64,000 nt of DNA from Kinneretia aquatilis (GCF_002885975.1 NZ_POSP01000003.1:1770440-1834439), one strand, 5' to 3'; counted from the stretch's first letter, positions 16,050 to 63,104 are shown. Numbers and translations: made by a program. Notes: a model not told the origin generated them from the sequence alone.

Positions 16050-16085
16050 GGGCTGCAGGCGTGAAAAAATTTCAGTGAGGAAGAC

Positions 16086-33092: not shown

Positions 33093-33653
33093 TCAACTCA
33101 GGCGCGATTCTTTCGGCAGCCGTGCGGCCAGCCACTCATGCACGTCCGCACGAATCCGCCTGCCCTTGAGCAGGAAGTCCTCGAAGCGGCTGGGCACATA
33201 AGGCGTGAACAGCAGCGGCATCCCGGCCTCCTCCGGCGTGCGGTCGGCCTTGCGCGCATTGCAAGCGCGGCAGGCAGCGACCGTGTTCATCCAGCTGAGA
33301 GGGCCGCCACGCGAGGCCGGCAGGATGTGGTCGACCGTGAGTTCGCGCAGGTCATGCGCATCGCCACAGTAGGCACAGGTCTGTCGGTCACGCCGGATCA
33401 GCTTGAGCTTGTTGAAGCCCGGCTCTCGCTCGAAGAGGTTCAAGCGCGAACTGCCGCTCAAGGCCAGGATGGCTGGAACTTCAATCCTGGACTGAAGGCC
33501 GGAGTGGACGTTCATGCCGCCGCGCAGGACGGCCAGCGGCGTATCACCGAGCGACCAGGCCACGGAGCGGGAGGCCACATGGACCGCCCCCTGCTCGACC
33601 GAGATCCAGGCCTGGGGCTGGCCGGTGATGTCCAACTGCAATACATCGTGCAT
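33093..33653 (-). CDS. HNH endonuclease
   Basis: 186 aa with zinc-finger/HNH core CAYCGDAHDLRELTVDHILPASRGGPLSWMNTVAACRACNARK; start at ATG 33653 with AGGAGG SD; lies inside the tRNA hotspot. Confidence 0.8.
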   Translation of the reverse strand: MHDVLQLDITGQPQAWISVEQGAVHVASRSVAWSLGDTPLAVLRGGMNVHSGLQSRIEVPAILALSGSSRLNLFEREPGFNKLKLIRRDRQTCAYCGDAHDLRELTVDHILPASRGGPLSWMNTVAACRACNARKADRTPEEAGMPLLFTPYVPSRFEDFLLKGRRIRADVHEWLAARLPKESRLS

Positions 33654-33801
33654 GGCGTCCTCCTTTCTGCGACTGGGCACGACTGAAATTCAACGACGAA
33701 GGCGGCGAGGCTCCAAGCTGCGCCCAGCGGATTCAAGGCTTAGTGCTCTTCCAGCAGAGCGAGGCCACGACTGACCAATGGGCGGCAGCGCTGCTCAACG
33801 C

Positions 33802-37573: not shown

Positions 37574-40500
37574 TCAGGCCGCCACGATATTGAGCGGCCC
37601 GTTGCCGAACTTCTCCGGCACATGGCCGAAGGCGAACAGCCGGAAATCGTTGTGGGCGAAGTTGCCGAGGTACTTGCCCTGATCGGCAATGACCACGCCG
37701 ACATCGTCGTTGCGCTCGAACGCCGTGGTGCTGAGGCTGAGCTCGTAGGCCAGCAGATCCAGGCTCAGGGCGCTGGCGATATTGGCATCGCCCACCAGGC
37801 TGCGGTAGCACCCATCCAGCACACCGCCGTTCTTGATCAAGCTGTCGATGCGCTGAACCCATTCGTCCGCCAGGCGCACGCCACGCAAGCGGTTGTTGCG
37901 CAGGCGCAGCCGGCCGTTGCCATGGGCCAGGCTGACCCGTCCGGCCTTCAGGGCCTGGCTCAGGCCCTGGAACAGGGCTTGCGGGAACTCGGGCAGGCTG
38001 GCGTCGCCGTACAAGGCCAGCTGGCCGTGGAACAGGTTGTCGGCCAACAAGGTGTCTGCGCGCGCATCGGCCAGGGTCAGGGCCGAGCCACCCTGGCTCA
38101 GCAGCACGCCGACACGCCAGCGCTCCAGCGTGGCCAACAGCTGCTGAGCCGGCACCTGCTCATCCTGCAGCTCTCGCTGGAACTGCTGCAGCGCCTCGCG
38201 CTCCTCGGGGGCCAGCGCCAAGGCGCCCGTGTCGGCCATGCGCAGGTAGTTGGCGATCTGGGCTCCCAGGCTCTTGCGCTGGGCTGCGCTGAGCTGGGCA
38301 TAGGCCTCGGCCACCCGCAGATCGAGCGGCTCGAACACCCGCCCTTCCTTGACCTCGAAGCTGGACTGCAAGGGCTTGAAGTCGGGCAGCAGCTCAAACA
38401 CCTGCTTCAGACGCGCCGGCAGGCCCTCGCCCGTGTAGGCCTTGATGCGGCAGGAGCTGATCTCCAGCGCGCTGGCGCCGGCAATCTGCAGCAGGCTCAA
38501 TCCCTTGGGGGTGAAGCCGCTTAAGCCCAGACGGCTCAGGCGCACCTGGCTGCAGCCTTCGATGCGCAACGAAGCCCAGCTCTCGCTCCACACCAGCTCG
38601 AACTGGTCCAGCTCCACCGAGGCGAAGTTGAAGAGATTGAACTCCTGCTCCTGCACGAACAGGCGACTGGCCTGCCCGGCGCCATGCACATGCAGGCGCG
38701 TGCCGCTGGGCGCTTGCACATCGATGCTGTCCTTGAAGTGGTGATCACCGGGCAGCAGGCAGAGCACGAGGTCACGCTGCTTCTCATTGATGAGCCGCTC
38801 GATGGCCTCGTCGAGCGTGGCGAAATCACCGCCCTCGCCCACCGTCTTGCTGCAGCCACCGCCATGGCCGCGCTTGCACAAGGCATCGATCGCGTCCTGC
38901 ACCGTGTGGACCTGAGCCGCCTGGGCCTCGGCGCAGTTGCTGGGGTCATAAGCGACCTGGGCGGCGGTGAGCAGGCTGGCGTTGAAATGGATGCGATTGA
39001 ACTTGCCCGCTGCCGGCGCACCGGCCTCCAGCAGCTCGGCGCTGCAGGTCTGCGACAGCACCGTGGGCGAGAGCGACCAGCTCACACTGGCCAGACCGTC
39101 CGGCCCCGTGTCCACCTCGGCCACCAGGCCACCGCCCGGAAGCTGACCGTGGCTGGCGGTGAAACGCACTCGCGCCCCGGCCACCGGAAACTGGCCGTTG
39201 AACACCGCCACCTCCAGCGGCCGCGGCAAGGGCACGGGCGCCGGCGCGATCGGGTTGGGCGCGATCTGCTGGCCATCACCGCCGACGTAGACGAGGTTGC
39301 GCAGCTCGCTCAAGCTGGGAAAGAGCTGGCGGCAGTCATGCAGCCTCGTCCATTGATTGCCCTGGTAGCGCAGCACGGCCAGGCGCGCAAAAGCGCGCAG
39401 CACGCCCAGCGGCGCGAGGAAGCGGGGCTTGTCGGCGCTGTCCAGTGGCCACTCGATGTTGGCCGTGGCGGTGCGGGCCGGGATCTGCCAGAAATCGCCG
39501 ATGCGGTAGCGGCCGGGCGCGAACTTGAGCTCCACCCCGTCTTCCAGCTCGACCCAGCCGGTGTTGGTGTTGGGCGCGGCGGGGTTGATTTGGCCCCAGC
39601 CTTCCCAGCGCCGCACGCGCGGGTTGACACTGAACAAGCCCTTGTCCAGCGGCCCGGTCTTGCTGCTCAAATCCACCGTCACGACATTGCCGGCCGTCTT
39701 GAGCACCTGCACCAGGGTGCCGGGCTGGCCGGTCTGCTCGTGCAGCTCGCTGTAGAACTCGATCCAGCTGCCGGCCTGGATGGCGAGCACGGCGTCGCGC
39801 CCCAGGCTGGCCACTTCGAACTCATTGGCCGTGGGCTCGCCCAGCCAGCGCGTCACGCGGCTGACGATGCTGCCGTTGTCACGCGACCATTTGAAACGCG
39901 GCTTGCCCGAAATACTGCCGTCGTCATGGATCTCGACGCGGTAGAGCTGGTTCTCCAGGCGCCGGTAGCCGGCCTCGGGGGTCAGCAGGCAGGGGTCTTT
40001 GGGCGGCACCGTGGGTTCGGCGCGCGCGGCCATGCGGCCATCGGGCGCCTGGCTGAAGCTGGCCCAGGGCTCGACGCTCAGGCAGTTCAACGAGGTGCTG
40101 ACATCGCCGGCGCGTAGCAGCTTGACCTGCCAGACCAGCTGGTCGCGCGTGCTGGTGTCCGGCAGGCCCAGAGCCACCTCACGGATGTGCGGCGCCTCCA
40201 GCGGCGTGATGTGGCGCAGCCAGGCCTCGACATAGCCGATGTAGACGCCCTCGCTTGGCGCCACGGCGGCACCGGCTGCGTTGTAGACGCGGATCTGGCT
40301 CAGCGGCGCGGCCTGGGCCGGCGGCAGGGCCAGCAAGCTCTGGCCCGCCGGCTGTGTAGGCAGCACCGGCGAGATGGCGCTGGCCAGGCCGGGCTGGGTG
40401 ATCAGCGTCTGGCCGGTGGCCGCCTCGCAGAGCAGGCCCTGCACATAGCAACGGCCGGCGCTGATGCTGATGTTCTCGCCGGCACCGGTGAGCAAAAAGC

Positions 40501-40687
40501 CGGCCGCATCAATGGGCACGGCCGCGCCTGCGCCCAGGCTGTCCACGGTCTCGGTTTCGATGCGGCGGTTCAGGATGTCCTGCTGCTCATTCCACTCGGC
40601 ATCCAGCTGCACCCGCCCCTGCTGCATGCGCACCGCGCGGTAATGCTGGTCGGGCCGGTCGGTCGATCGGGTCAGGTCGGCTTTCAT
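37574..40687 (-). CDS. eCIS distal protein, putative tail fibre/tailspike (beta-helix-like)
   Basis: 1037 aa, last gene of the operon. The central region has short Gly/Ser-rich repeats and Cys pairs compatible with a right-handed beta-helix (ALCKRGHGGGCSKTVGEGGDFATLDEAIERL...HVHGAGQASRLFVQ...). Position matches Afp13/Pvc13-type fibres. Confidence 0.45.
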   Translation of the reverse strand: MKADLTRSTDRPDQHYRAVRMQQGRVQLDAEWNEQQDILNRRIETETVDSLGAGAAVPIDAAGFLLTGAGENISISAGRCYVQGLLCEAATGQTLITQPGLASAISPVLPTQPAGQSLLALPPAQAAPLSQIRVYNAAGAAVAPSEGVYIGYVEAWLRHITPLEAPHIREVALGLPDTSTRDQLVWQVKLLRAGDVSTSLNCLSVEPWASFSQAPDGRMAARAEPTVPPKDPCLLTPEAGYRRLENQLYRVEIHDDGSISGKPRFKWSRDNGSIVSRVTRWLGEPTANEFEVASLGRDAVLAIQAGSWIEFYSELHEQTGQPGTLVQVLKTAGNVVTVDLSSKTGPLDKGLFSVNPRVRRWEGWGQINPAAPNTNTGWVELEDGVELKFAPGRYRIGDFWQIPARTATANIEWPLDSADKPRFLAPLGVLRAFARLAVLRYQGNQWTRLHDCRQLFPSLSELRNLVYVGGDGQQIAPNPIAPAPVPLPRPLEVAVFNGQFPVAGARVRFTASHGQLPGGGLVAEVDTGPDGLASVSWSLSPTVLSQTCSAELLEAGAPAAGKFNRIHFNASLLTAAQVAYDPSNCAEAQAAQVHTVQDAIDALCKRGHGGGCSKTVGEGGDFATLDEAIERLINEKQRDLVLCLLPGDHHFKDSIDVQAPSGTRLHVHGAGQASRLFVQEQEFNLFNFASVELDQFELVWSESWASLRIEGCSQVRLSRLGLSGFTPKGLSLLQIAGASALEISSCRIKAYTGEGLPARLKQVFELLPDFKPLQSSFEVKEGRVFEPLDLRVAEAYAQLSAAQRKSLGAQIANYLRMADTGALALAPEEREALQQFQRELQDEQVPAQQLLATLERWRVGVLLSQGGSALTLADARADTLLADNLFHGQLALYGDASLPEFPQALFQGLSQALKAGRVSLAHGNGRLRLRNNRLRGVRLADEWVQRIDSLIKNGGVLDGCYRSLVGDANIASALSLDLLAYELSLSTTAFERNDDVGVVIADQGKYLGNFAHNDFRLFAFGHVPEKFGNGPLNIVAA

Positions 40688-50704: not shown

Positions 50705-51361
50705 TCAGAACAAGGCGTTCAGGCCCAGGCTGGCCAGCGAGGCGCTGGAGGCCTTGCGGGCCAGGCGCTCGCGACCCTGGTGGTAGACCATGTAGAGGTG
50801 GCCGGCCTTGCTGCCAAAACCCAGGTCGTTGATATTGAGCACCCGCATGCCCAGCGAAACGCGCGCACGGATGGGGTTGAGCTGGGCGTCGAAGGCCTCC
50901 TCGACGATGGAGAAATCGGTGATGCGCACCGGCACTACCCGCTCCTTGCTCCACACAAACAGGGGCAGCGGCGCCTCCACCGGCGCAATCTCCAGTGTGC
51001 CGACGCTGGCCAGGGCGTTGTTGCGGATCAAGGTGCCGCTGTCGGGGTAGACCATCACCTCGAGCGCGGCCAGTTGGGCATGAAGACCCACCTCGACCAC
51101 GGCGGCATGCTGGTCGGGCGCTGCGAGCTGGTCGGTGGCGTCGATGTCGGCGTCGAGCTTGAGGGTCTCGATCGGCGGGCCCTTGAGCCGCAGCGGCTGG
51201 CTCAGCGCCGTGCTGCTGCCGGCGCCCTGGGGCGTCAGCGAGCGGGTCAGCAGATCGGGGTTGTACTGCAGGGCGATCACGCGCTGCACCGCACCGCTGG
51301 ACGGGTCGATCAAGATGATGCCGCCCTTGAGCAGCTTGGGCGAGCGGGTCAGGCCGGTCAC
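50705..51361 (-). CDS. phage tail tube-family paralog (tube initiator/Afp5-Afp7-like), uncertain
   Basis: 218 aa, GTG start overlapping the effector stop (GTGA); beta-rich with ILIDPSSGAVQRVIALQYNPD block; sits between cargo and the LysM/gpD/gpV hub genes where tube-initiator genes occur. Confidence 0.4.
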   Translation of the reverse strand: MTGLTRSPKLLKGGIILIDPSSGAVQRVIALQYNPDLLTRSLTPQGAGSSTALSQPLRLKGPPIETLKLDADIDATDQLAAPDQHAAVVEVGLHAQLAALEVMVYPDSGTLIRNNALASVGTLEIAPVEAPLPLFVWSKERVVPVRITDFSIVEEAFDAQLNPIRARVSLGMRVLNINDLGFGSKAGHLYMVYHQGRERLARKASSASLASLGLNALF

Positions 51362-54300
51362 TTTTCCTTCTCCTCGCTGCTGGCGGCACCGAACAGATTG
51401 CCGAGCATTTTTTGCGTGTCGAGCTTGAACTCGGCGGGCTCGGGCTGGATGTCCGAGAGCTTGGGCATGCGGAAGCCCTCGACGCTGTCATAGTGCAGCG
51501 GCATGCGCACACCCAGGCTCAGGCCGGTGTCGAACTTGGCCTCCTTGAGCGTCCAGACCTTTTCGGTGCTGACCTTGAAGACCGAGACGCCAGCCTCGGC
51601 AAACACCTTGGCCTTGAGCGCCGCACCGAGCTCGATGCTGCCGCCGATGTAGGCGCTGGCATCGACGCTGAAACGGTCCTTGGCGTAGGCGATCTCGCCG
51701 CCCAACTCGGCCTTGCCCTTGAGCCCCGCACGCGCCTCCACGCTGAGCCCGCCGCCGACCTTGCCGATGAAGGCATCGAGCACCACATTGGCGCCCACCG
51801 TCCCGGTGATGCCGCCGCCGGCCGGGATGCTGGCCTTGGCCTTCATGCTGAAGGCGAAGTCAGGGTCGGGCTCGAAGGGGCTGAACTTGACCGTGGCCTT
51901 GATGCCGGTGAGCACACCCGGGCCGACGTAGTAGTAATAGCCCAGGCCGCCGTAGAGCTCGACCTTGAGGCCGATGGGGCCGATGGACGCGCCGGGGATG
52001 GGGATGCTGCCCGAGGCGCTGAACAGGCTCTTGGGCGTCTCGTCCTTCGGAAAGCGCGGGAACAGGGTGATGTCGGGAAAGCTCAGCTCGCCATCGAAAG
52101 TGATCTTCTGCTTCTCGTCGATGGTGATGGCGGCCGAGGCCACCATGTCTTTCTTGATCTCGTAGCTGAGCTTGCCGCTGCCGGTGAGGGTCTGGTTGGG
52201 GTGGAGCTTGACGTCGATGGAACCCTTGGCCCGGCCCTTGTCGATCTTGATATTGCCGTCGCCGTAGACCTTTTCCTTGCCGCCCTGGTTCTCGTAGGTC
52301 GCGCTGACCGTGCCGTCCAGGCCGGAGAAGGCAATGCCGGTGCTGCCGGTGGCACGGAAGAGATCGCCATCGACCGAGAGCTTGGCATCGATGGGCTTCA
52401 GATACTTGCTCTTGGTTTCGATGCGTCCGCGGCCCGAGTAGCTGAAGCGGTTGTTGGCGTACTTGACCTCGAGCGACGCCGGGTTCTTGCCAGGCAGCTC
52501 CAGATCGACCCGGCCGTTGGCATCGAGCTTGCCGTTCTTCAGGCTGACATCGACCGCACCCCCGGTGACAAAAGGCAGCTTGAGCTTGCTGGCCTCGACC
52601 TTGGCGCCGCCGCTCCACTGCCCTGCCTGGTAGAGCACCGTGCCCTTGGCCTCGTCGACACCGGGGATGTAGACGAAGAGATCGCCCTTGAGCACCAGGC
52701 CCTGATCGTCGGCGCTGGCCGTCAGCTTCACATCGGCCACCTTCTTGGCCCCGCCGATCTCGAAAGCCAGGGTGCCCACCGGCTTGAAGGCCGGCGCCAG
52801 CTCCATCATCACGCTGGCCTCGGTGACCTTCATCCCCGGGAAGGGCGGCTTGATCTTCTTGGGATCGAGCGCCTTGCCCATGCGGAAGCCTTGGGGGTCC
52901 AGCACCACATCGAGCGTGGGCAGCAGGGGCAGCGAGGGCTTGATGGTGCCTGCGGCCGTCACGCCCGAGGCGTCCATGCTCAGGGTGGTGAAGGTGATGG
53001 GGCTGAGCTTGGCGAACTCGGCCTTGATGGGCGCCGGCAGCTTGCCTGAAAGAGGCTTGACCACACCATCCGGGCCGATGGCCAGGGTCACGACCGTGCT
53101 CTTGGTGCCGGGCTTGGCACCAATGGCGGCATCGTCCAGCGTGGCCTTGAGCTTGTCGTGACCCTTGCCCTTGGGATCGCGCTCGTAGCTGATGATCGTC
53201 AGACCCTTGACGCTGCTGGCGATGGCGGCATTGACCCCGGTCAGCGGAATGGACTTGCTCTTGTCCGCCGGCAGCTTGAGCGTGAAGGGCTTGCCCAGCA
53301 CACTCACTTCGACATCGACCGAAGGCTTGTCGGTGGCGGCCGTGACGGCCGGATCGACAAAGCGTTGAGAGAGCTGGCAGCAGATGCCACAGGTCGGCGA
53401 GCCCTGCATCAGCACACCGCCAAAGGTCAACGACACCCGCTTGGGCCGCTTGCCGCCAAGCGCGTCCTTGGCATCGGCAAAAGCCTGCTCGGCCAGCTGG
53501 CGCAGCTGCTGCTGGATCAGGCCGCCGCTGGAGGCGTTGTCCACCTTGTCGATGACTTGCAGATTGCTGCCGGCGTTCGTGCCACCGACCTGCAGCTCCT
53601 GCATATGGTCGAGTTCGCAGCTGGGGCCGATGGGCGGCTTGGGGAACTGTTTTTCACCCCCGACCTCGGCCCAGCGCGCATGGGCTTTCTTGTCGAGCTT
53701 GTGGCCCACGGTTTCCAGCCAGGAGCGTTGCAGCTTCTCGGTTGGATCACGGGCCTCGTTCTTGCCGGCCTTGTTCTGCGTCGGCACCGGGCCGCCCGAC
53801 CAGTCGAACACCGCGTGCAAGGCACTGGTGTTCTTCTTGCAATAGTCCAGGGCCTTCTGGCCTTTCTGCGGCGGCAGGACCAGGGTGTCCACCTTGTAGG
53901 CCGCCTCGGTCTTGTCCACGGTACCGGTGGCCTGCTCGGGCACCGCCGTTCCCGTCAGCGAGAACTTGCGGTTGTAGGTGGTGGTTTCGTAATTGGCCTC
54001 GAAGCTGGGCGGCTTGGCCTTGCCCGTGTCTTCATCCTTGGCCTCTGCGGGCTTGGCGGCCGGCGTGGCGCTGGGCTTGCGCGACAGGCGCGGGCCGCTG
54101 CGGCTCAGGCCTTGGCCCAGGTTCAAACCCTCCGTCAGCCCGCCGCGCATCACCCGGTCGGCCGTCTGGTCGGCCTCCATTTCCAGGCGGCGGTAGTCGG
54201 GGCCGTGATCGGCCAGATTGCTGATGCCGCTGCGCTGCAGGCCCTGCTGCTGCACCGTGTGGGCCAGTTCATGGGCCAGCAGGTGGCGGCCCGGCTCGCT

Positions 54301-54756
54301 GTGCGGCTGGTAGGCGCCATCGCCGAACACGATGTGCTGGCCGACGGTGTAGGCCTGGGCATCGACATCACGGGCCGAAGCGGCCGCCGCGCTGTCGTCG
54401 TGCACGCGCACGGCCGAGAAATCGCTGCCGGGGCCGAAGCGCGATTCCATGAAGCTGCGCGTGTCGGCATCGAGCGGCCGGCCGGCACGCGACAAGGTGT
54501 CGCTGACCGAGCCGGGCCAGGCGGCCTCGTTCTGGCTGGAGGCAGGGCTGCCGCTGCTGCTGTAACGCTGCAACAAGGCCTTGGCCGCGCAGCTCTCGCA
54601 TTCGCCGCCGGCACCGGCGCCGCTGCCGCAGGCGCAGCGGCGTTGCAGCAAGGGGCGAACCGCCGGCTCTTTGCCAGGCGGGCGCCTCTCGCCGCGCGGC
54701 GCCTGCTCGCGCTCCGCAACCTTGGGGCTGGCGGCGTGGACGGCACTGCTGCTCAT
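51358..54756 (-). CDS. DUF4157 (HExxH zinc-metallopeptidase-like) domain protein, candidate eCIS cargo/effector
   Basis: 1132 aa. The N-terminal ~200 aa carry a Cys cluster (RRCACGSGAGAGGECESCAAK) and the DUF4157 block SFMESRFGPGSDFSAVRVHDDSAAAASARDVDAQAYTVGQHIVFGDGAYQPHSEPGRHLLAHELAHTVQQ, i.e. HELAH = HExxH. The remainder is a long Gly/Lys/Thr-rich beta-repeat region. ATGA overlap with the upstream small ORF. Confidence 0.7.
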   Translation of the reverse strand: MSSSAVHAASPKVAEREQAPRGERRPPGKEPAVRPLLQRRCACGSGAGAGGECESCAAKALLQRYSSSGSPASSQNEAAWPGSVSDTLSRAGRPLDADTRSFMESRFGPGSDFSAVRVHDDSAAAASARDVDAQAYTVGQHIVFGDGAYQPHSEPGRHLLAHELAHTVQQQGLQRSGISNLADHGPDYRRLEMEADQTADRVMRGGLTEGLNLGQGLSRSGPRLSRKPSATPAAKPAEAKDEDTGKAKPPSFEANYETTTYNRKFSLTGTAVPEQATGTVDKTEAAYKVDTLVLPPQKGQKALDYCKKNTSALHAVFDWSGGPVPTQNKAGKNEARDPTEKLQRSWLETVGHKLDKKAHARWAEVGGEKQFPKPPIGPSCELDHMQELQVGGTNAGSNLQVIDKVDNASSGGLIQQQLRQLAEQAFADAKDALGGKRPKRVSLTFGGVLMQGSPTCGICCQLSQRFVDPAVTAATDKPSVDVEVSVLGKPFTLKLPADKSKSIPLTGVNAAIASSVKGLTIISYERDPKGKGHDKLKATLDDAAIGAKPGTKSTVVTLAIGPDGVVKPLSGKLPAPIKAEFAKLSPITFTTLSMDASGVTAAGTIKPSLPLLPTLDVVLDPQGFRMGKALDPKKIKPPFPGMKVTEASVMMELAPAFKPVGTLAFEIGGAKKVADVKLTASADDQGLVLKGDLFVYIPGVDEAKGTVLYQAGQWSGGAKVEASKLKLPFVTGGAVDVSLKNGKLDANGRVDLELPGKNPASLEVKYANNRFSYSGRGRIETKSKYLKPIDAKLSVDGDLFRATGSTGIAFSGLDGTVSATYENQGGKEKVYGDGNIKIDKGRAKGSIDVKLHPNQTLTGSGKLSYEIKKDMVASAAITIDEKQKITFDGELSFPDITLFPRFPKDETPKSLFSASGSIPIPGASIGPIGLKVELYGGLGYYYYVGPGVLTGIKATVKFSPFEPDPDFAFSMKAKASIPAGGGITGTVGANVVLDAFIGKVGGGLSVEARAGLKGKAELGGEIAYAKDRFSVDASAYIGGSIELGAALKAKVFAEAGVSVFKVSTEKVWTLKEAKFDTGLSLGVRMPLHYDSVEGFRMPKLSDIQPEPAEFKLDTQKMLGNLFGAASSEEKEK

Positions 54757-55070
54757 CGCGGCAGCCCCTGGATCAAGGCGCGGGCCAGGCGCTGGCCGGT
54801 GCGCTCAGGCGACTCGGCGGCCGAGCGGCGAAAACGCGGGATGCGCAGCAGATCGGCCTCCATGCTGGGCTGCAGGGCCAGCTGCGAAGCCTGCTGAGCC
54901 AGCAGGCGCCCGAGCTCCTGCTCGAAGGCTCCGGCCAGCCGCGCGCCTTCTCGCGCCGTGTAGCCCGGCAAGGCGAGGCTGCCGATATGCAGCTGCACCC
55001 GAGGAGCCGGCGCGGCGCTGCTCCGCGGCACAGCCTGAACCGAGGTGGCCACTGAGACAGGCTTGTTCAC
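54753..55070 (-). CDS. small eCIS-associated hypothetical protein (105 codons, GTG start)
   Basis: The only part of ORF 54753..55838 that does not overlap the ATPase gene. A GTG at 55070 overlaps the ATPase stop (GTGA) and its own stop overlaps the effector ATG (ATGA). Confidence 0.4.
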   Translation of the reverse strand: MNKPVSVATSVQAVPRSSAAPAPRVQLHIGSLALPGYTAREGARLAGAFEQELGRLLAQQASQLALQPSMEADLLRIPRFRRSAAESPERTGQRLARALIQGLPR

Positions 55071-57130
55071 AGCCAATCTCCCACATCGGCGGCGGGCAAG
55101 GGCCGCTCCAGCTTGGCGAACTCGGCCGCGGCGGCATCGCGCAGATGGCGCATGGTGATGACCGAGTCTTCGTCGGCGGCCAGAAACGCGGCATTGAGCG
55201 CCAGATTGCGGATGTGGCCGCCCGAGAGCGAGAGCCGCATCAGCTTGCCGATGTCGATGGCCCCCAGCGGCGCGGCGGCCGGGAAGGCGCGCTCCCAGAT
55301 CGCGGCGCGGGCCGCCTCGTCCGGGAAGGGGAACTGGACGATGAAGCGGATGCGGCGCTGGAAGGCCGGGTCGATGGCCTGCTTGAGATTGGTGGTCAGA
55401 ATGGCCAGGCCGCGGTAGCTCTCCACCCGCTGCAAGAGGTAGCTGACCTCGATATTGGCGTAGCGGTCGTGGCTGTCCTTGACCTCGCTGCGCTTGCCGA
55501 ACAAGGCATCGGCCTCGTCGAACAAGAGGATGGCGCCGCTGGCTTCGGCGGCGGCAAAGACGCGGGCCAGGTTCTTCTCGGTCTCGCCGATGTACTTGCT
55601 GACCAGGCTGGCCAGATCGATGCGGTAGAGATCGAGCTGAAGCTCGCGCGCCAGCACCTCGGCGGCCAGGGTCTTGCCCGTGCCGCTGCCGCCGCTGAAC
55701 AGAGCGCTCAGGCCCAGGCCGCGGCTGCTGCGCTCGGCAAAGCCCCAGCTCTGGTAGACCCGGTGGCGCTGGCGCAGCTGGGCGGCCATGCTGCGCAGGC
55801 TGTGCAGGGCCGGCTCGGGCAGGACCAGATCGGCCCATTGCGCGCGCGCCTCGATGCGCTGGGCCAGGTCGTCCAGCCCGGCGCCCCCCGAACCCGCAGT
55901 CATGCCCGGCGCCGTGCGCGTGGAGGGCCGCAGCAGCTCACCTGCGGCCTCGCGCGCCGCCTCGCGTGCGGCCTGCCACAAGCGGCTGGCCCGGGCACGC
56001 TCGTCCTCCCCCGCATGATCGTCCAGCGCAGCGCGCCATTGCCCGGCCAGCTGCAGAACCTGGGTCTGGGACAGCTGGAACTGCTCGGCCAGGGCCGGCA
56101 TCTGGCGCTGCAGCTCGGTGCTCACATCCCTCTGGCCCAGACTGTCCCGCCACAAGGCCAGGCGGCGTTCCGCGCTCAGCTCGGTGGAAGGCAGCAAGCG
56201 CTGCGCCCGGCGCAGCGGCAGGCGACCCGCCTCGCCGCGGCTGCTGAGCAGCAGCAGACTGGGCAGGCCGTCGAGCCAGACGGCCAACTGCCCCCCGGAC
56301 GCTCCGCCCTCCTCCATGGCATCCAGATCCACCCAGAGCAGGCCGCGGTGCAAAAGCGCCTCGCGGGCCCAGAGCCGGGTCATGGCCTCGCGCTCGGCCG
56401 ATGGGGGCAGCTCTTGCAGGCGGTAGAGGCTCAGGCCCAGGCGCTGCGCCAAAGTGTGGACCAGCACCTCGGCCTCACGGCCGGCGTAGTGGGCCACCGG
56501 GGTCTGGAGCAGTGAAGGTGCCGCCTCCCAGGCGGCGGCCAGTGCGGCCAGGCCGGCATCCTGCTGCGCCCCCAGCTCCGCCTCCGACTCCATACCACGC
56601 CGCGCCGCTTGGCGCTGCAACCAAGGCGCCAGGCGCGGGTCGGCATAGCGGACCCCGGCGAGGGCGTGCAGCACGGTCTCGTCCACCGCCCAGCGTGCGT
56701 CGAGCGGGCCCAGTCCGCCGACCAACTCGATCAGCTGCCAGCGGCGCAGCGGCGCCACCGGCGTCAGGGCTTCCCAACGCGACTCGGCCAGCAAGGCCAG
56801 GGCCAGGCGGCCGTTCAGCCAGGGTTGCCCGCCCTCGCCCTGCGCTTGCGCCAGCAGCGGGCCGATGCGGGCATCGAGCTGCGGCGCCACGGCGAGCAAC
56901 AAAGCATCGCGCTCAAACGGACTCAGGCCCAGGCTGTGCGCCAGTTGCCCCAGGGCCGGCGGCACCTGCTCGCCCGACAGCAAAGGCATGGGCTGGCCCG
57001 GCGCCTGCTGCAGATGCTGCTCGATGCGCGCCAGGGCTTGCGTGAGCACGCGGGCATTGCGCGCCTGCTCGCGGTGGCTGCTGCTGCCCTTGCCGATCGG
57101 CGAGCTCGATGGGGCCGAGGCGGTGTTCAC
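55067..57130 (-). CDS. eCIS AAA+ ATPase (Afp15/Pvc15-like)
   Basis: 687 aa; C-terminal AAA+ module with Walker A GGSGTGKT, Walker B ILLFDEAD, sensor/arginine finger; long N-terminal extension; GTG start overlapping the DUF4255 gene stop. Confidence 0.8.
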   Translation of the reverse strand: MNTASAPSSSPIGKGSSSHREQARNARVLTQALARIEQHLQQAPGQPMPLLSGEQVPPALGQLAHSLGLSPFERDALLLAVAPQLDARIGPLLAQAQGEGGQPWLNGRLALALLAESRWEALTPVAPLRRWQLIELVGGLGPLDARWAVDETVLHALAGVRYADPRLAPWLQRQAARRGMESEAELGAQQDAGLAALAAAWEAAPSLLQTPVAHYAGREAEVLVHTLAQRLGLSLYRLQELPPSAEREAMTRLWAREALLHRGLLWVDLDAMEEGGASGGQLAVWLDGLPSLLLLSSRGEAGRLPLRRAQRLLPSTELSAERRLALWRDSLGQRDVSTELQRQMPALAEQFQLSQTQVLQLAGQWRAALDDHAGEDERARASRLWQAAREAAREAAGELLRPSTRTAPGMTAGSGGAGLDDLAQRIEARAQWADLVLPEPALHSLRSMAAQLRQRHRVYQSWGFAERSSRGLGLSALFSGGSGTGKTLAAEVLARELQLDLYRIDLASLVSKYIGETEKNLARVFAAAEASGAILLFDEADALFGKRSEVKDSHDRYANIEVSYLLQRVESYRGLAILTTNLKQAIDPAFQRRIRFIVQFPFPDEAARAAIWERAFPAAAPLGAIDIGKLMRLSLSGGHIRNLALNAAFLAADEDSVITMRHLRDAAAAEFAKLERPLPAADVGDWL

Positions 57131-58434
57131 AGCAGCAACTCCGGGCCGGCAAAGCGGCCATCGGCCGCCACCGTCAGCGGGCTGACGCCGGCATCGACCT
57201 GCAGGCGCGCGAGATAGCGGCCGGGCAGCACATGCTGGAACGGAATGCGCAGCACGCCATTGCTGGGGGCCGGCGCAATCACCCCATTGCCCTCGGGCGC
57301 ATCAAAGCTGTAGGCTCGGGCCGGCCGGTCGGCGGGCGGGTCTTTCTCGTTGAGCAGCAGGCGCACCCGCTGGCGCGCGCCGACCGGAGGCGTCACCGTG
57401 GCCCTGATGCGGCCCTTGGCATAGGCCTGGCCGTCGATCACGTCCTGACCCGCACCGGGCTCCAGCGCAAACAGCGCTTGCGGATGCAACACCAGGGCGC
57501 CGAGATTGGACTCCACCACCCCATGCGGCTGCGGTGGCGAACCCATCAGATGGGCATGGCAGACCTGCACGCTGCACAGGCCCGCGCGCAAGTCCAGGGC
57601 GGGGCTGAGCTGCAGGCGGATCTCTTCGTCGCTGACCGAGAGCAGGCTAGCCGGCGGCAGCGACACGCCGTTGAGCTTGAGCGTCAGCTGTGGCGACTTC
57701 AGCAATGCGCCGCTGATGCGCACGATGCTGTTGGGCAGGATGGGCGTGCCCGCCGGCCCTTCGGCTTCCACCCGGTCGATGCGGGGGCTGCGCAGGGTCA
57801 GCACATGCACCTGGCGGCTGCTCACAGGCAGCGGTGTGCGCACACTGCGCGGCGTCTGCGTCAGCAAGACGCTGACCGAATAGGCTGCACTGGGCCGCGC
57901 TGGCAGCTGGATGGCCCCCCAGAGCCGCGAGACCTCGTCCATGCCCAGGTTCATGGCCGTGATGCGCAGCTGCTCCAGCTGGTCGGCCAGGCCCGCCAGC
58001 TCCAGCTGCTTGGGAAGATTGGGTTTATTGGCTTCCGGCTTGAGCGCACGGCGAATGGCCTCACGCCCCAGGGCCGGCGTGTCGTGCAAGACCTGCATGG
58101 CGGCGCCAAGCAGGATCTCGGCATGGAAATCCTGCAGGCCGTAGGCCACCAGCAGGTAGTGCAGGTCCAGGGCCAGGGCCGGATTGGCGCTGCGCTCGCC
58201 GCGCCCATCGCGGCTGGGCAGGTCGAGATTGGCCCAACCGGTGTTGCGGGTCTGGTTGTAGAGCACGATGTTCAGCGAAGGCAGGTCCGCCTGGGCCTGG
58301 GCTTTCTCGGGCGGCAAGCAGGTCACCGCCGGGCTGGCGCCCAGCACATCGGCCAGCTTGAGCGCGACAAAGCCATCGCTGATCAGTTGCTGCAAGACCG
58401 CCGAGGTGGCGGCCAATCCCAGGGCCGAGCTCAT
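57127..58434 (-). CDS. DUF4255-domain protein (Afp16/Pvc16-like tail terminator/cap)
   Basis: 435 aa; N-terminal DUF4255 block MSSALGLAATSAVLQQLISDGF...VTCLPPEKA...LNIVLYNQTRN; ATGA overlap with the previous gene. Confidence 0.75.
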   Translation of the reverse strand: MSSALGLAATSAVLQQLISDGFVALKLADVLGASPAVTCLPPEKAQAQADLPSLNIVLYNQTRNTGWANLDLPSRDGRGERSANPALALDLHYLLVAYGLQDFHAEILLGAAMQVLHDTPALGREAIRRALKPEANKPNLPKQLELAGLADQLEQLRITAMNLGMDEVSRLWGAIQLPARPSAAYSVSVLLTQTPRSVRTPLPVSSRQVHVLTLRSPRIDRVEAEGPAGTPILPNSIVRISGALLKSPQLTLKLNGVSLPPASLLSVSDEEIRLQLSPALDLRAGLCSVQVCHAHLMGSPPQPHGVVESNLGALVLHPQALFALEPGAGQDVIDGQAYAKGRIRATVTPPVGARQRVRLLLNEKDPPADRPARAYSFDAPEGNGVIAPAPSNGVLRIPFQHVLPGRYLARLQVDAGVSPLTVAADGRFAGPELLL

Positions 58435-59345
58435 GAGCGCCGCCGTTCTGCCAGATAGGACTCCAGCGACTGCGGCGCACGCGCCTGCGCCTGCGCGGGG
58501 TTCGGCTGCGGAGCGGCCGCAGGCGCCGGGGCCCCGATCGGCTGCACTTCGATGCGGCCGATGTGGATCTCGATCTGCGGTGCCAGAGCTTCATGCCGCA
58601 TGGAGTGCGCCGAAGCGGCGCTCTCGCGCCGTTCAGGCAGCGTATGCAGGGAAGCTTCGCGCGGGGCCTGCACGGCATCCAGCGGCTGAAGCTTCAAGGA
58701 TGCCAGCGATGGCAGCGCTGGACCGCGCGCCGCCGAGCTGTCGTCCGCAGTGGCTGCCGGCTCCAGGCGATCCAGCGCGGCCATGCGTGATGGACGCGAT
58801 GGCGTCACAGCTGTCGAGCGGCCCCGCTGTGAATCGGCCGGTTGCAGCGCGGCCTCAGATTCCAGCCCGCGATCGCGCGCAGGACGGCGTTCAGCCGGGC
58901 TCCGGCTGGCATCGGCCCAGCCACTCTCCTGGGGCCGCGACGGGGCCGTCACGTGATGCCAAGGCTGCTGCACACGAGCCTCCGCAGGAGACGACTGCGC
59001 GGTTGCGGCGCGCGGCGCCGGGTCACGCTCGCTCGTCGCCGGGGCGGAGCGCGCCGATGAACCGGCGTCTGACAAGGCCTGCATCACAGGGCCGTGCGGC
59101 TGAGGCGCAGCATCTGCGCGGGGGCTGGTCCAGGGCTGCGGGGACGGGCCGCGCGCCGGCACGCCGAGGCCATCGCCCTCACCCGGCTCGGCCCACGCAG
59201 CAGGATCCGCCCCCCATCGCGCAGGTCCGTTCGGCGCTGGAGCGTCCTCAAAACGCGAGGCACGGCGCGGCTGCAAGCCGGGCGCTTGCACGGCCTTGCG
59301 GGCCAGCGCGGCGAAGAAGTCCGAGGCCATGCCCTGGGTCTTCAT
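58431..59345 (-). CDS. Pro/Ala-rich protein at the tape-measure position (putative tail length determinant)
   Basis: 304 aa from ATG 59345 (MKTQGMASDFFAALARK...), overlapping the upstream stop. Mostly Pro/Ala/Ser/Arg low complexity, then a conserved-looking C-terminus APQIEIHIGRIEVQPIG...SLESYLAERRRS. Lies between tube/chaperone-like genes and the cap gene. Confidence 0.4.
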   Translation of the reverse strand: MKTQGMASDFFAALARKAVQAPGLQPRRASRFEDAPAPNGPARWGADPAAWAEPGEGDGLGVPARGPSPQPWTSPRADAAPQPHGPVMQALSDAGSSARSAPATSERDPAPRAATAQSSPAEARVQQPWHHVTAPSRPQESGWADASRSPAERRPARDRGLESEAALQPADSQRGRSTAVTPSRPSRMAALDRLEPAATADDSSAARGPALPSLASLKLQPLDAVQAPREASLHTLPERRESAASAHSMRHEALAPQIEIHIGRIEVQPIGAPAPAAAPQPNPAQAQARAPQSLESYLAERRRS

Positions 59346-60079
59346 GCCAGCACCCGTTCCAGATAGCGCGCCCGGCGGCCGGGGCTCAGGGCCAGCACCT
59401 GGGCCTCGCTCCAACCATAGGCCCGGGCCAGCAGATGCACCTGATCGAGGCAGCGCTCGGACCAGCTCGCCAGGGCGCTGAGCAAATGGCTTGCAATGTC
59501 AAAGCCCTCGCTCCAGCCATGCTCGCAAGCCGGGCATTGCAGGGCCAGCTCGGTGTGGGCCTGCGGGTCGGCGTCGCTGAGCGCCGCGCTCAGCCGCTGC
59601 ACTGCCTCCTCGCTCAGAGCCAGCGGCGCGGCGGCCTCGGCCTGGTCTTGCTCGCTCAGCTGCAGGCAGCGCGCCATCAGCAAGGCGCGGGCCTGGCCCT
59701 CGTCTGCCTGCTGCGCCGCGTCCCAGAGGTCGCGACTATCTGGCAGGCGGCAGCGCAACAGGCGTCCGTCGAGTTCCAGCGTCAGGGCTTCTGCGCTGCC
59801 CGAGGTTTGCTCCGGCACCATCAGCTCGGGCACTTGCAAGGCCAGCTCCAAGCTCTCACCACAACGCGGGCATATGGCCAGCAGCTCCAGCTGTGGGCCG
59901 AACAAGGCCTGTTGCAGCTCCAGGAGCTGGCGGTCGCGCTGGCCCAGGGGCAGGCTCGCGGCCCAGCCGGGCTCGGCCTGCCAGACGCGGTCCAGCAAGG
60001 CACAGGCGCGCAGCGGCGGCGGCAGGCCGTGGCTGCTGTCGAGCAGGTCCAGCCAGTCGGCGGAGCTCAGGGAAGCCAT
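59342..60079 (-). CDS. zinc-ribbon-like hypothetical protein (possible tail assembly chaperone)
   Basis: 245 aa, ATG at 60079; two CxxC pairs (CPRCGES ... CPACEHG) ~110 aa apart; follows the tube gene. Confidence 0.45.
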   Translation of the reverse strand: MASLSSADWLDLLDSSHGLPPPLRACALLDRVWQAEPGWAASLPLGQRDRQLLELQQALFGPQLELLAICPRCGESLELALQVPELMVPEQTSGSAEALTLELDGRLLRCRLPDSRDLWDAAQQADEGQARALLMARCLQLSEQDQAEAAAPLALSEEAVQRLSAALSDADPQAHTELALQCPACEHGWSEGFDIASHLLSALASWSERCLDQVHLLARAYGWSEAQVLALSPGRRARYLERVLA

Positions 60080-60656: not shown

Positions 60657-62942
60657 TCAAACCTGGATCTGACCAGCCAGCTGCTGGATGCGGATGACGA
60701 CGAACTCCGCCGGCTTGAGCGGCGCGAAGGCGACGAGGATGTTGACGACACCGCGGTTGATGTCGTCCTGGGTGGTGGTCTCGCGGTCGCACTTGACGAG
60801 GTAGGCTTCCTTGGCGCTCTTGCCCTGGAAGGCGCCGAGGCGGAACAGGCTGTTCATGAAGGCGCCAAGGTTGAGCCGGATCTGCGCCCAGAGCGGCTCG
60901 TCATTGGGCTCGAAGACCACCCACTGGGTGCCGCGGTAGAGGCTTTCCTCTAGGAACAGGGCCAGGCGACGCACCGGCACGTACTTGTACTCCGAGCTCA
61001 TCTGATCGGCGCCGCGCAAGGTGCGCGCGCCCCAGGACACGGCGCCGTAGACCGGCAGCACCCGCAGGCAGTTGACGCCCAGGGGGTTGAGCGCGCCGCA
61101 CTCGCCATCGGTCAGGGTGTAGGCGGTCTTCTGCACGCCGCTGAGCGTGGCCTCGGTGCCGGCCGGCGCCTTCCAGACGCCGCGCTCGGCATCGGTGCGG
61201 GCGAACAGGCCGGCCACCGTGCCGCTGGGCGGGGTCAGGCGCAGCTTGCCATTGCGCAGCGGGTCGGCGATGTAAACCCAGGGGTAGTAGACCGCCGCAT
61301 GGTCGGACTTGGGCAGGCCGGTGCCGTTGACGGCCGCCACCATCTGGGCCGGGTCCTGCGCCGAGGGCGGCGCGTCGATCACGAAGAAGGCGCGGCGCTC
61401 CTCGCAGTAGGCGGCCGCATCGGCCAGCACGCCGGGTTCGGTCACACCGGGCAGGCTGAGCAAGGTGAACAGATCCACCTCTTCCAGCGCATAGATGCCT
61501 TGGCGCTTGGCGCGGTCGGCAATGAAGGTGGGGTAGAGATCGGCCTCGGCGTAGGGCGTCTCGGTGCCGCCGGCCAGGTAGAGATTACCCGGCTGGGTGC
61601 TGGTGGCGCCGGCCAGCAGGTGCAGCTCGTTGGCAATGCTCTTGGCCGGGGCAGCGCTGACGGCGATGCTGCTGCCGGCACCCCGCGAACCGGTGGCCAG
61701 CACCAGGCTTGTGCCGCTGACCTTGACCGTGAAATCACGGTAGCTCGGGTGGCCCGGCTTCAAAGCACGCACGGCGGCTTGCAGGCGCGCCGCCACATCG
61801 TCGAGCTTGGCAGCCAGGTCAGCGCCTGCGGCGGCTGCGCTGCCGATATCGACCACATCAGGGCCATAGCCATCGAGGCTGATGCGCAGCGCGCTGTGCG
61901 TGGCATCCGGCAGGGTGTTGAGGTCATTGGCCGCAAACACAGCACTGCTCAGCGTGGCCGGATCGGGCACGGGTGCCGGGCGGATGGTCGCCACCGCGTC
62001 CACCTCCAGACCGCCCGAGGCAGCGCCCAGCTTGAGCACGCCGCTGGCATTGTTCTTCTGGCCGGCCAGCACCCGCAGCTGCGAGAACTCGCCGCCTTGG
62101 CCCGAGGTCATCAAGATCTGCTGGGTGCCCGGCGGGCGGGCGCAGGTGAACAGGTCGTAGGCCTGCTGGCTGTTGGCCTGGGCGCGCACCTGGAGCTGGA
62201 TGGCGGCGCACAAGCTATCCAACCGCTGCGTGGCCGTGCCGCCGCCGATGTCGCCCGGCAAAGCGATCAGCACCTTGACCGGCGGCAGGCCGTTGACCGA
62301 GACCCGGAACTCGTTGTGGTTGGCGTCCAGCAATGTCGCAACATCGGCCAGGGGCAGGCTTCGCGAAGTGCCAGCCGGCAGGGCATCGAGCGCAGCCTTG
62401 CTGACCAGGCGGCTGAGCTTGACCAGCTGCGAGCTGGCATTGACCAGATCCAGCACATAGCGCGCATCGGCGGAGTTCATCGAGACATTGGCATAGCTCT
62501 CGGCCGCCCCATCCTCGGCGCGGAACAGCGAGAGGTTGAAGCTGCTGCCCGGGTTGGCGCTCTGGTGATCGACGCGGATCTCGATGCCATTGCCCGAGGC
62601 CCCCGCGTCCAGCGCCGTGAGCTTGAGCACATCGGCGGCGGCGGCATTGCGCAGGCTGCGTTCGGCCGTGCTGGCGTCCTTGACCAGGCGGATGGCATAG
62701 GCCTCGGTGCCGCCGTTCTGGAAGTACTGGCGCACGGCATAGCCCAGCTCGGAGTCGAGGGCCAGGCCGCCGAAGCGGCGCTCGTAGTCCGAGAAGCTGA
62801 ACAGGCGCACCGCCTTGTTGATCGGCCCCCGGGGCGCGGAGCCGGCGAAGGCCGCGATGGCCGTCGCCACGCCGCTGATGGTGCGCACCCCGCTGGGCAG
62901 CTCCTCGATGTAGACGCCAGGATAGTTCAGTTGCGCAGGCAT
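60657..62942 (-). CDS. contractile tail sheath protein
   Basis: 761 aa from ATG 62942 with AGGAG SD; N-terminus MPAQLNYPGVYIEELPSGVRTISGVATAIAAFAG and C-terminal sheath domain (GVNCLRVLPVYGAVSWGARTL) are the conserved sheath signatures; first gene of the operon. Confidence 0.85.
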   Translation of the reverse strand: MPAQLNYPGVYIEELPSGVRTISGVATAIAAFAGSAPRGPINKAVRLFSFSDYERRFGGLALDSELGYAVRQYFQNGGTEAYAIRLVKDASTAERSLRNAAAADVLKLTALDAGASGNGIEIRVDHQSANPGSSFNLSLFRAEDGAAESYANVSMNSADARYVLDLVNASSQLVKLSRLVSKAALDALPAGTSRSLPLADVATLLDANHNEFRVSVNGLPPVKVLIALPGDIGGGTATQRLDSLCAAIQLQVRAQANSQQAYDLFTCARPPGTQQILMTSGQGGEFSQLRVLAGQKNNASGVLKLGAASGGLEVDAVATIRPAPVPDPATLSSAVFAANDLNTLPDATHSALRISLDGYGPDVVDIGSAAAAGADLAAKLDDVAARLQAAVRALKPGHPSYRDFTVKVSGTSLVLATGSRGAGSSIAVSAAPAKSIANELHLLAGATSTQPGNLYLAGGTETPYAEADLYPTFIADRAKRQGIYALEEVDLFTLLSLPGVTEPGVLADAAAYCEERRAFFVIDAPPSAQDPAQMVAAVNGTGLPKSDHAAVYYPWVYIADPLRNGKLRLTPPSGTVAGLFARTDAERGVWKAPAGTEATLSGVQKTAYTLTDGECGALNPLGVNCLRVLPVYGAVSWGARTLRGADQMSSEYKYVPVRRLALFLEESLYRGTQWVVFEPNDEPLWAQIRLNLGAFMNSLFRLGAFQGKSAKEAYLVKCDRETTTQDDINRGVVNILVAFAPLKPAEFVVIRIQQLAGQIQV

Positions 62943-63104
62943 GATGGAAAACTCCTTCTGGCGCCGTTTCGACAAGGCGCACGACGCGACGCTCGGGACT
63001 CGATCCGCCCACCGCAGCACCGGGCCGCGGCGGCACGCTGCCTGTCACGACCGGGAATGGCTGCATCAGGCCCGCGCAGCCTATGAGGGGCGTTGACCGC
63101 ACAA

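Follow-up and report, generated by a model that had tools for sequence, protein, structure and literature searches.

A candidate lumen cargo effector with a central nuclease-like module encoded within a contractile injection operon of Kinneretia aquatilis

What is a protein of more than a thousand residues for, when its gene is embedded among the structural genes for an extracellular contractile injection system (eCIS)? We address this question in a stretch of 64,000 nucleotides from Kinneretia aquatilis (NZ_POSP01000003.1:1770440-1834439), analysed as a whole and hereafter called the window. The gene is an ATG-started open reading frame (ORF) at 51358..54756 on the minus strand that encodes a 1132-aa eCIS_core (DUF4157) protein, as in the original prediction, and it is the largest ORF of a complete contractile-injection operon in which every neighbour is likewise on the minus strand. 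Payloads of eCIS carry DUF4157 as their signature domain, and its role continues to be called elusive; an annotated toxic domain is missing from most predicted DUF4157 toxins, and lineage II eCIS have no recognised tape-measure protein. On balance, we favour the reading that the gene encodes a built-in lumen cargo effector of a lineage-II-type eCIS. The probable warhead is a central nuclease-like module, not DUF4157 or the C terminus.

Domain layout and a variable central slot

The full protein was modelled with AlphaFold2 from a 70-sequence alignment (mean predicted local distance difference test score (pLDDT) 78.7), with low pLDDT taken as a proxy for disorder. The parts of the protein, all on the minus strand, are as follows.

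54517..54756 (-): residues 1-80, predicted disordered N-terminal region (pLDDT ~30), candidate loading signal
54589..54636 (-): residues 41-56, CxC...CxxC cluster flanked by LLQR/LQR motifs, seen in the sequence
54142..54516 (-): residues 81-205, eCIS_core/PVC-metallopeptidase zincin-fold domain with 'glutamate helix'
54259..54273 (-): residues 162-166, HELAH zinc-binding/catalytic motif
54181-54183 (-): E192, candidate third ligand by analogy with gluzincin architecture
54010..54141 (-): residues ~206-249, linker (pLDDT 33-60; poorly conserved, gappy alignment)
53332..54009 (-): residues 250-475, predicted central alpha/beta NucB-like beta-beta-alpha-metal (His-Me finger) module; polymorphic slot
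53524..53619 (-): residues 380-411, beta-beta-alpha core motif C..DH..ELQ.GG.N...N.Q..D...N..SG, from alignment and model
51427..53319 (-): residues 480-1110, constant all-beta domain

Modelled alone, residues 250-475 reach a pLDDT of 92.4 and a predicted template modelling score (pTM) of 0.88. In the full model, two strands (residues 381-384 and 399-402) and a helix (residues 404-432) form a beta-beta-alpha element, which recurs in the domain-only model at pLDDT >95 and coincides exactly with the invariant block of the core motif. Motif counts were taken from hidden Markov model (HMM) alignments, as a strict regular expression under-counted the nuclease motif; every member that carries the module (199/199) has D383, H384, N398 and N407. 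The central domain is structurally similar to a solved His-Me finger nuclease, and its spacing of 24 residues from D383 to N407 is that of D93 to N117 in NucB. By analogy, D383 and N407 would be metal ligands and H384 the general base, with N398 in a structural role. Pfam HNH (PF01844) was matched by 19 of the 21 members scanned singly (best E-value (E) 2e-5). The nuclease assignment is founded on fold, topology and the intact, invariant active-site constellation, because sequence comparison with NucB was not significant. We regard the central domain as a NucB-like His-Me-finger nuclease-like module with a presumed nuclease activity, and as the likely toxic part.

This module occupies a slot that varies within the family. 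Across 222 full-length members, the beta-domain HMM matches all 222, the eCIS_core HMM 220 and the HMM of the NucB-like module 199. The other 23 (~10%) carry unrelated central segments of 200-290 aa, which fall into at least eight groups and lie between eCIS_core and beta-domain flanks that the HMMs find constant. One of these groups matches Pfam Endonuclea_NS_2 (E 1.2e-5; 25.9 bits, cutoff 27) and has an invariant Y.RGHLLN..LGG...NLTPL....NNWG motif. Another has invariant H..I / G..DL / AEIK residues, a PD-(D/E)xK-type signature by eye, with no Pfam match, and a single member (P0142) has HAE...PC..C and a weak deaminase match (E 0.049); several alternative-module assignments are made from motifs only. 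Members with alternative modules are found at the canonical operon slot in three loci. The family thus behaves like a polymorphic toxin with its variable slot in the middle, between two constant flanks. Since module swapping on a constant scaffold is a hallmark of polymorphic toxins, it provides the strongest argument for the central module as the warhead.

Two members depart from the usual arrangement. P0129, with an Endonuclea_NS_2-type module, is encoded at the 3' end of its eCIS operon (L013:7068-10277), after DUF6519, an Lcl_C-like gene and a glycosyltransferase/methyltransferase gene and not in the ATPase-to-tube-initiator slot; this one relative thus holds the classical eCIS toxin position, the operon 3' end after the fibre gene. 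P0237 (2362 aa) has two eCIS_core stretches and two DH..ELQ motifs followed by one C-terminal beta-domain, and looks like a tandem fusion or a duplication of the N-terminal two-thirds.

The N-terminal flank is built around the eCIS_core domain. Pfam PF13699, whose present Pfam name is 'eCIS core domain', matches residues 94-172 (E 8.4e-32; 109.6 bits, cutoff 22; 77/79 profile positions), which bears out the DUF4157 block with HELAHTVQQ (residues 162-170) that the original prediction had read in the sequence. HMM alignment shows H162, E163 and H166 in 220/220 family members and E192, on the next helix, in 212/220. The model has pLDDT ~90 over residues 81-172 and over the helix at 186-203, and the domain has a zincin (metallopeptidase) fold. 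Further matches of the domain are proabylysin, M1 and M32 peptidases and ArdC; in PDB sequence and profile searches VgrG2b appeared at only E 0.41, which is not significant. The domain is a zincin, as had been supposed. Ahead of it, the CxC...CxxC cluster was likewise recovered, as C41, C43, C53 and C56, each at least 90% conserved in 70 homologues, in a part of the model with low confidence. Residues 1-80 as a whole are rich in Ala, Ser, Gly, Arg and Pro. No candidate transmembrane helix segment was found in the protein (maximum 19-residue Kyte-Doolittle window 1.22, threshold 1.6).

The C-terminal flank is the larger of the two. AlphaFold2 predicts ~37 antiparallel strands over residues 480-1110, lengthening to 28-29 residues and arranged as an antiparallel meander. 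The strands are strongly amphipathic, with a mean hydropathy of +2.0 on one face and -1.4 on the other, and the domain aligns almost gap-free across the family. Internal repeats give weak signals only: neighbouring 160-aa blocks align with an hhalign probability of 78-79%, a similarity that is consistent with tandem up-and-down modules. The only significant Foldseek matches to the beta-domain were to LptD, but with template modelling scores (TM-scores) of ~0.1. PDB searches with the full protein, the full-family profile, the central-domain profile and eCIS_core alone returned no solved homologue by sequence; a streptavidin match at E 0.15 was judged to be due to chance. The C-terminal ~800 aa, originally described as beta-repeats rich in Gly, Lys and Thr, fit that account only in part: residues ~480-1110 are all-beta, but residues 250-475 are alpha/beta and the repetition is weak, and whereas Gly (10-14%) and Lys (10-12%) are abundant, Thr is only 5-6%. 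A second toxic domain had been suggested as a possibility for this region; the C-terminal beta-domain is constant and not a second variable toxin. It is large, specific, structurally confident and always co-inherited with the machine.

Family distribution and operon setting

A word-indexed search retrieved 624 homologues. Nearly all of the best 120 match over their full length, at 32-79% identity, and 95 of them have lengths of 1080-1160 aa. Homologues come from Beta- and Gammaproteobacteria, Acidobacteriota, Myxococcales and Verrucomicrobiota, thus from at least four phyla, and carry the NCBI label 'eCIS core domain-containing protein'. The closest relatives are from a Paucibacter sp. (94% identity) and a Rubrivivax metagenome-assembled genome (99%, partial); cultured hosts with orthologues are this Paucibacter sp., Paraburkholderia dipogonis and Pseudomonas fluorescens. 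An exhaustive search of 1.84 billion representatives with the beta-domain alone gave 468 clusters at 50% identity (E<=0.001), and in every full-length match the beta-domain is C-terminal in a protein of ~1000-1150 aa. Longer variants are mainly extended at the N terminus, before eCIS_core, and the distance from eCIS_core to the C terminus is ~1040-1135 aa also in variants that are N-terminally extended or module-swapped. A Terracidiphilus genome and a Verrucomicrobiota contig have the same neighbours in the same order on either side of the gene. Near-constant length and identical gene order across phyla mark this as a fixed core gene of one eCIS lineage and not an occasional passenger. The protein is therefore not a typical variable 'cloud' toxin but the product of a core gene of fixed position and near-constant length.

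The operon, in the direction of transcription, is composed as follows.

60657..63020 (-): sheath, by Pfam sheath domains
between the sheath and the 245-aa protein (-): gp19-type tube
59342-60079 and 58431-59414 (-): 245-aa T4_baseplate-like protein and ~300-aa ORF, between the tube and cap genes
57127..58434 (-): Pvc16_N cap
55067..57130 (-): Cis15/Afp15-type AAA+ ATPase with winged-helix domain, 687 aa (Pfam AAA E 3.4e-24, WHD E 4.1e-13)
54753..55070 (-): 105-aa ORF, coupled to the ATPase and eCIS_core genes by its junction sequences
50705..51361 (-): 218-aa ORF downstream of the eCIS_core gene, by position tube-initiator/CIS_tube-like, joined by a GTGA overlap
after the 218-aa ORF, before the spike (-): 114-aa and 385-aa ORFs, no Pfam match
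after the 385-aa ORF, in order (-): Phage_base_V spike, DUF4280/PAAR-like, gp25, two Baseplate_J, Tail_P2_I-like
37574..40687 (-): DUF6519 protein, last gene of the operon, eBAP5-class tail-fibre/baseplate-anchor candidate (Pfam DUF6519 E 7.3e-48)

The genes around the eCIS_core gene overlap one another. The start of the 105-aa ORF overlaps the stop of the ATPase gene as GTGA, its own stop overlaps the start of the eCIS_core gene as ATGA, and the stop of the latter overlaps the GTG start of the 218-aa ORF as GTGA. Translational coupling on both sides, as originally described, is thus confirmed, but coupling does not establish the stoichiometric synthesis that had been read into it. By analogy with Alg15/Pvc15 ATPases, which have a role in cargo loading in the AlgoCIS literature, the ATPase at 55067..57130 is the presumed cargo loader. 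The DUF6519 domain of the last gene has recently been classed as the eCIS tail-fibre/baseplate-anchor domain eBAP5 (PMC12923769).

The 218-aa ORF had been called a tube paralog. It has no detectable similarity to the gp19 tube protein of the operon (BLASTP E 2.1) and no Pfam match of its own; its positional orthologues match Pfam PF19266 CIS_tube, unqualified in one locus and weak or faint in two. These matches lend the assignment indirect support, so that a tube paralog is plausible. DUF4157 proteins bind the tube initiator in Streptomyces.

The upstream 105-aa ORF was considered as an immunity protein and rejected, as it is homologous in loci with differing toxin modules: homologues stand at the equivalent position in loci L001, L003 and L014, whichever toxin module is present. 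This constancy identifies it as a core partner and not a cognate immunity protein. Small ORFs of 85-134 aa between the ATPase and eCIS_core genes (window 54753-55070 (-); L001:9600-10004, L003:9690-10004, L014:1223-1480) are translationally coupled and conserved across phyla, and they share an hxxHIxxLxLxG ... G..IA.A pattern with no family annotation. The deaminase-like-module locus L015 (P0142) is without the usual upstream small ORF and has an extra 80-aa ORF directly downstream of its eCIS_core gene (L015:6403-6645), which may be a cognate immunity gene; the window has no equivalent of this ORF.

HMMs of each part of the protein found no second eCIS_core, nuclease-like or beta-domain copy in the 64 kb, and the window has no 3' toxin genes after the operon. 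The DNA beyond the operon is ordinary chromosome, including RecBCD, SbcCD-like genes and MlaC. RecC, RecB and RecD and an SbcC/SbcD-like pair lie downstream of the operon at 12229-25491 (-), which points to a chromosomal setting, neither phage nor plasmid. A stand-alone 195-aa ORF (33093-33680 (-)), ~4 kb past the end of the eCIS operon, has strong canonical HNH_5/HNH/HNH_4 matches (E 3.7e-14).

The sheath varies in length, with 787 aa in the window (60657-63020), 766 aa in the Verrucomicrobiota locus (L003:1964-4264) and 551 aa in the Acidobacteriota locus (L001:2546-4201). Pfam sheath domains span only residues ~518-779 of the window sheath, leaving a large N-terminal or inserted region without annotation. 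Between tube and cap, the 245-aa protein has weak T4_baseplate (E 6.7e-6) and PHROG baseplate-hub matches, and the ~300-aa ORF has no match in any library searched; both genes recur at the same place in L001 and L003.

Cargo effector, structural protein or metallopeptidase toxin

In the cargo reading, which draws on AlgoCIS, haloarchaeal CIS secretomes and Streptomyces Tme/Sle2, the neighbouring Cis15 AAA+ ATPase would recognise the disordered N terminus (residues 1-80), and the protein would be loaded into the inner tube's lumen, by analogy with AlgoCIS and Streptomyces. There it would probably be tethered to the tube-initiator/spike complex encoded just downstream, and sheath contraction would expel it with the spike. 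The central module, whose fold and site (D383/H384/N407) are conserved, would then attack recipient nucleic acid. The zincin eCIS_core domain, with its intact HExxH plus Glu, may act as a processing/releasing or handling peptidase and not as the toxin, a role that fits a DUF4157 that is constant while the central module varies. The most tentative step concerns the constant 630-aa amphipathic beta-domain, a candidate delivery or packing module that may serve in lumen packing, in anchoring to the tube initiator or spike, or in membrane insertion/translocation. Published work has DUF4157 proteins as tube-lumen cargo or secreted CIS substrates, the latter CIS-dependent in haloarchaea.

Several observations weigh against this reading. 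The beta-domain makes up 56% of the protein and has no function assigned, and a fixed position with near-constant length in at least four phyla is commoner for structural components than for toxins. The window protein's own Pfam HNH score is E 0.15 (12.7 bits, cutoff 21.4). Alignment of the central-domain profile with Bacillus subtilis NucB by hhalign was not significant, though the register agrees (the NucB sequence used was checked at five residues numbered in PMC5758888), and PDB profile searches with the central domain were not significant either. No cognate immunity gene was found next to the gene in the window, and the small ORF coupled to it upstream shows no co-variation with the module. 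The PD-(D/E)xK assignments were made by eye only.

Another reading is that of a protein that is chiefly structural, a lumen scaffold or tape-measure equivalent that nucleates the tube on the spike/tube initiator, fills the lumen and possibly helps to set tail length; it would be ejected incidentally, like phage tape-measure proteins, with the enzyme modules as secondary additions in a Tme-like dual function. We consider this unlikely, although it is the strongest of the rivals. The gene has the tape-measure position just upstream of the tube-initiator/hub/spike genes and is the cluster's largest ORF, its synteny is identical in Acidobacteriota and Verrucomicrobiota, and its length is tightly conserved, as set out above. 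Lineage II is reported to be generally without Afp14 homologues, scans of the operon with Pfam, PHROGs and NCBIfam gave no other tape-measure candidate, and the protein falls within the operational 'tme-like' definition (N-terminal DUF4157, relative ORF length, synteny). The same three libraries, however, give the protein itself no tape-measure family match, and the predicted structure is compact alpha/beta plus all-beta with neither a long helical or coiled-coil ruler nor a transmembrane-helix candidate. It is not an Afp14/gp29-type tape-measure protein, resembling one only in gene position. The swapping of the central module is a toxin hallmark, the gene of one family member is accessory and holds the 3' toxin position, and in the literature deletion of the S. 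coelicolor effector genes sco4256-4258 emptied the lumen and left particle assembly unaffected. Effector and structural roles are not mutually exclusive, as Tme shows. A combined role is a more speculative proposal still: the family would be the lumen-resident core protein of lineage II eCIS, a beta-structured, spike-anchored functional replacement for the helical tape measure, with a swappable nucleic-acid-targeting warhead in its middle. Such a protein would template the tube or fill it and leave with firing, and once ejected its beta-domain would insert into the target membrane as a translocation device. If true, ruler, cargo and translocon would be united in one protein, and DUF4157 would gain a defined processing role.

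The original prediction had put forward an injected toxin with DUF4157 in front. A DUF4157/eCIS_core protein in a complete eCIS operon is indeed present, but DUF4157 itself is probably not the warhead, and the central nuclease-like domain is the likelier one. That the metallopeptidase is the toxin, acting on a periplasmic or envelope target like the VgrG2b C terminus with the remainder as carrier, we hold to be improbable. Its HExxH is invariant; in the E. coli periplasm the VgrG2b C-terminal domain has a toxicity that depends on HExxH, with no substrate known (PMC6899460), and a SalCIS cargo with a zincin-type fold shows mild periplasmic toxicity. Against this, DUF4157 is found as a near-universal marker of eCIS, in fusion with or next to many unrelated toxins, and in the present family it stays constant while the central module varies. 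In AlgoCIS, moreover, DUF4157 is dispensable for loading and the toxicity of Cgo1 is independent of its metalloprotease (HExxH) motifs (PMC8894135; bioRxiv 10.64898/2026.05.27.728243), which makes a DUF4157 warhead unlikely. An external structural fibre attached through DUF4157, be it a tail fibre or, for instance, a trimeric beta-helix, would account for a large, beta-rich C-terminal half co-transcribed with baseplate genes, but is so improbable that we reject it: fold matches include no fibre or beta-helix, the strands are predicted to form an antiparallel meander, the gene is placed after that of the ATPase and ahead of those for the inner baseplate hub and not after wedge genes, and the operon already ends with the DUF6519/eBAP5 fibre-class gene. 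The fibre alternative that the original prediction had kept in reserve falls with it.

The NucB-like His-Me nuclease, with its invariant D-H/N site, is a concrete candidate warhead for a family of 468 clusters, and a variable toxin slot between two constant modules lends itself to the exchange of cargo in programmable injection systems.

Comparison with known systems

DUF4157 proteins are a class already known as eCIS payloads. In the literature searched we did not find the present architecture, in which a zincin and a 630-aa beta-domain, both constant, enclose a polymorphic slot for nucleic-acid-targeting modules. A NucB-like assignment and a fixed place in the operon core with no tape-measure features were not found there either; such genes may be depicted in supplementary figures of Geller 2021 and Nagakubo 2024, which lay outside the search.

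The closest enzyme is NucB/NucA of Bacillus (PDB 6EJS; PMC5758888). Essential residues of NucB are Asp93 and Glu94 (DRDE) and Asn117 (DNRG), with Glu94 as general base, whereas the window family keeps the canonical His (D-H). NucB is a stand-alone secreted enzyme of 110 aa; in the window protein the fold lies inside a 225-aa domain of a 1132-aa protein. For the metallopeptidase domain, the counterpart is VgrG2b of the P. aeruginosa H2 type VI secretion system (H2-T6SS; PDB 6H56; PMC6899460). There it is a C-terminal extension of the T6SS spike, is itself the toxin and has a downstream immunity gene, whereas here it is N-terminal, constant and beside a separate variable enzyme module.

Among whole proteins, Cgo1 and Cgo2 of AlgoCIS (Algoriphagus machipongonensis; PMC8894135; bioRxiv 10.64898/2026.05.27.728243) share with the window protein a disordered N terminus, DUF4157 and a large ordered remainder. 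Cgo2 is similar in size (1228 aa), and all three genes lie in an eCIS operon with a Cis15-type ATPase. Cgo1 and Cgo2 have been shown to be cargo of the inner-tube lumen, released on contraction. Beyond DUF4157 no significant homology to them was seen, though no search aimed at it was made. Their N-terminal domain (NTD) is required for loading, and by analogy residues 1-80 may have the same role here. Cgo1 has a predicted C-terminal metalloprotease activity, and AlgoCIS has a separate tape-measure protein, Alg14. Unlike Cgo1 and Cgo2, the window family has a central nuclease-like slot, a constant beta-domain and a fixed core position.

Tme of Streptomyces davawensis (PMC11126660), compared by its description, likewise has an N-terminal DUF4157, is the largest ORF of its cluster, lies just upstream of the tube-initiator/spike genes and carries a His-Me-finger-type nuclease (predicted in the window protein). 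It co-purifies with PAAR, VgrG and the tube initiator (PMC11126660). Tme has 2247 aa and is ~70% disordered, with predicted transmembrane helices, coiled coils, remote tape-measure homology and a C-terminal EndA-like nuclease; the window protein has 1132 aa and is mostly well folded, with a central NucB-like domain and a 630-aa beta-domain at its C terminus. Tape-measure homology, coiled coils and transmembrane helices of the Tme type were not found in it by Pfam, PHROGs and NCBIfam searches, the model or hydropathy.

The broadest comparison is with the eCIS-associated toxins (EATs) that have a PVC-metallopeptidase pre-toxin domain (Geller 2021 PMC8213781; Danov 2024 PMC11297309). Shared features are the N-terminal DUF4157, a downstream toxin module, a long intervening sequence and the eCIS linkage. 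In 983 predicted EATs DUF4157 is the sole annotated domain, and the window protein would be one of these. Described EATs combine a constant N terminus with a variable C-terminal toxin and usually have their genes at the operon's 3' end. The window family, by contrast, has its variable slot in the centre, a constant C-terminal 630 aa and a fixed, internal position in the core of the operon.

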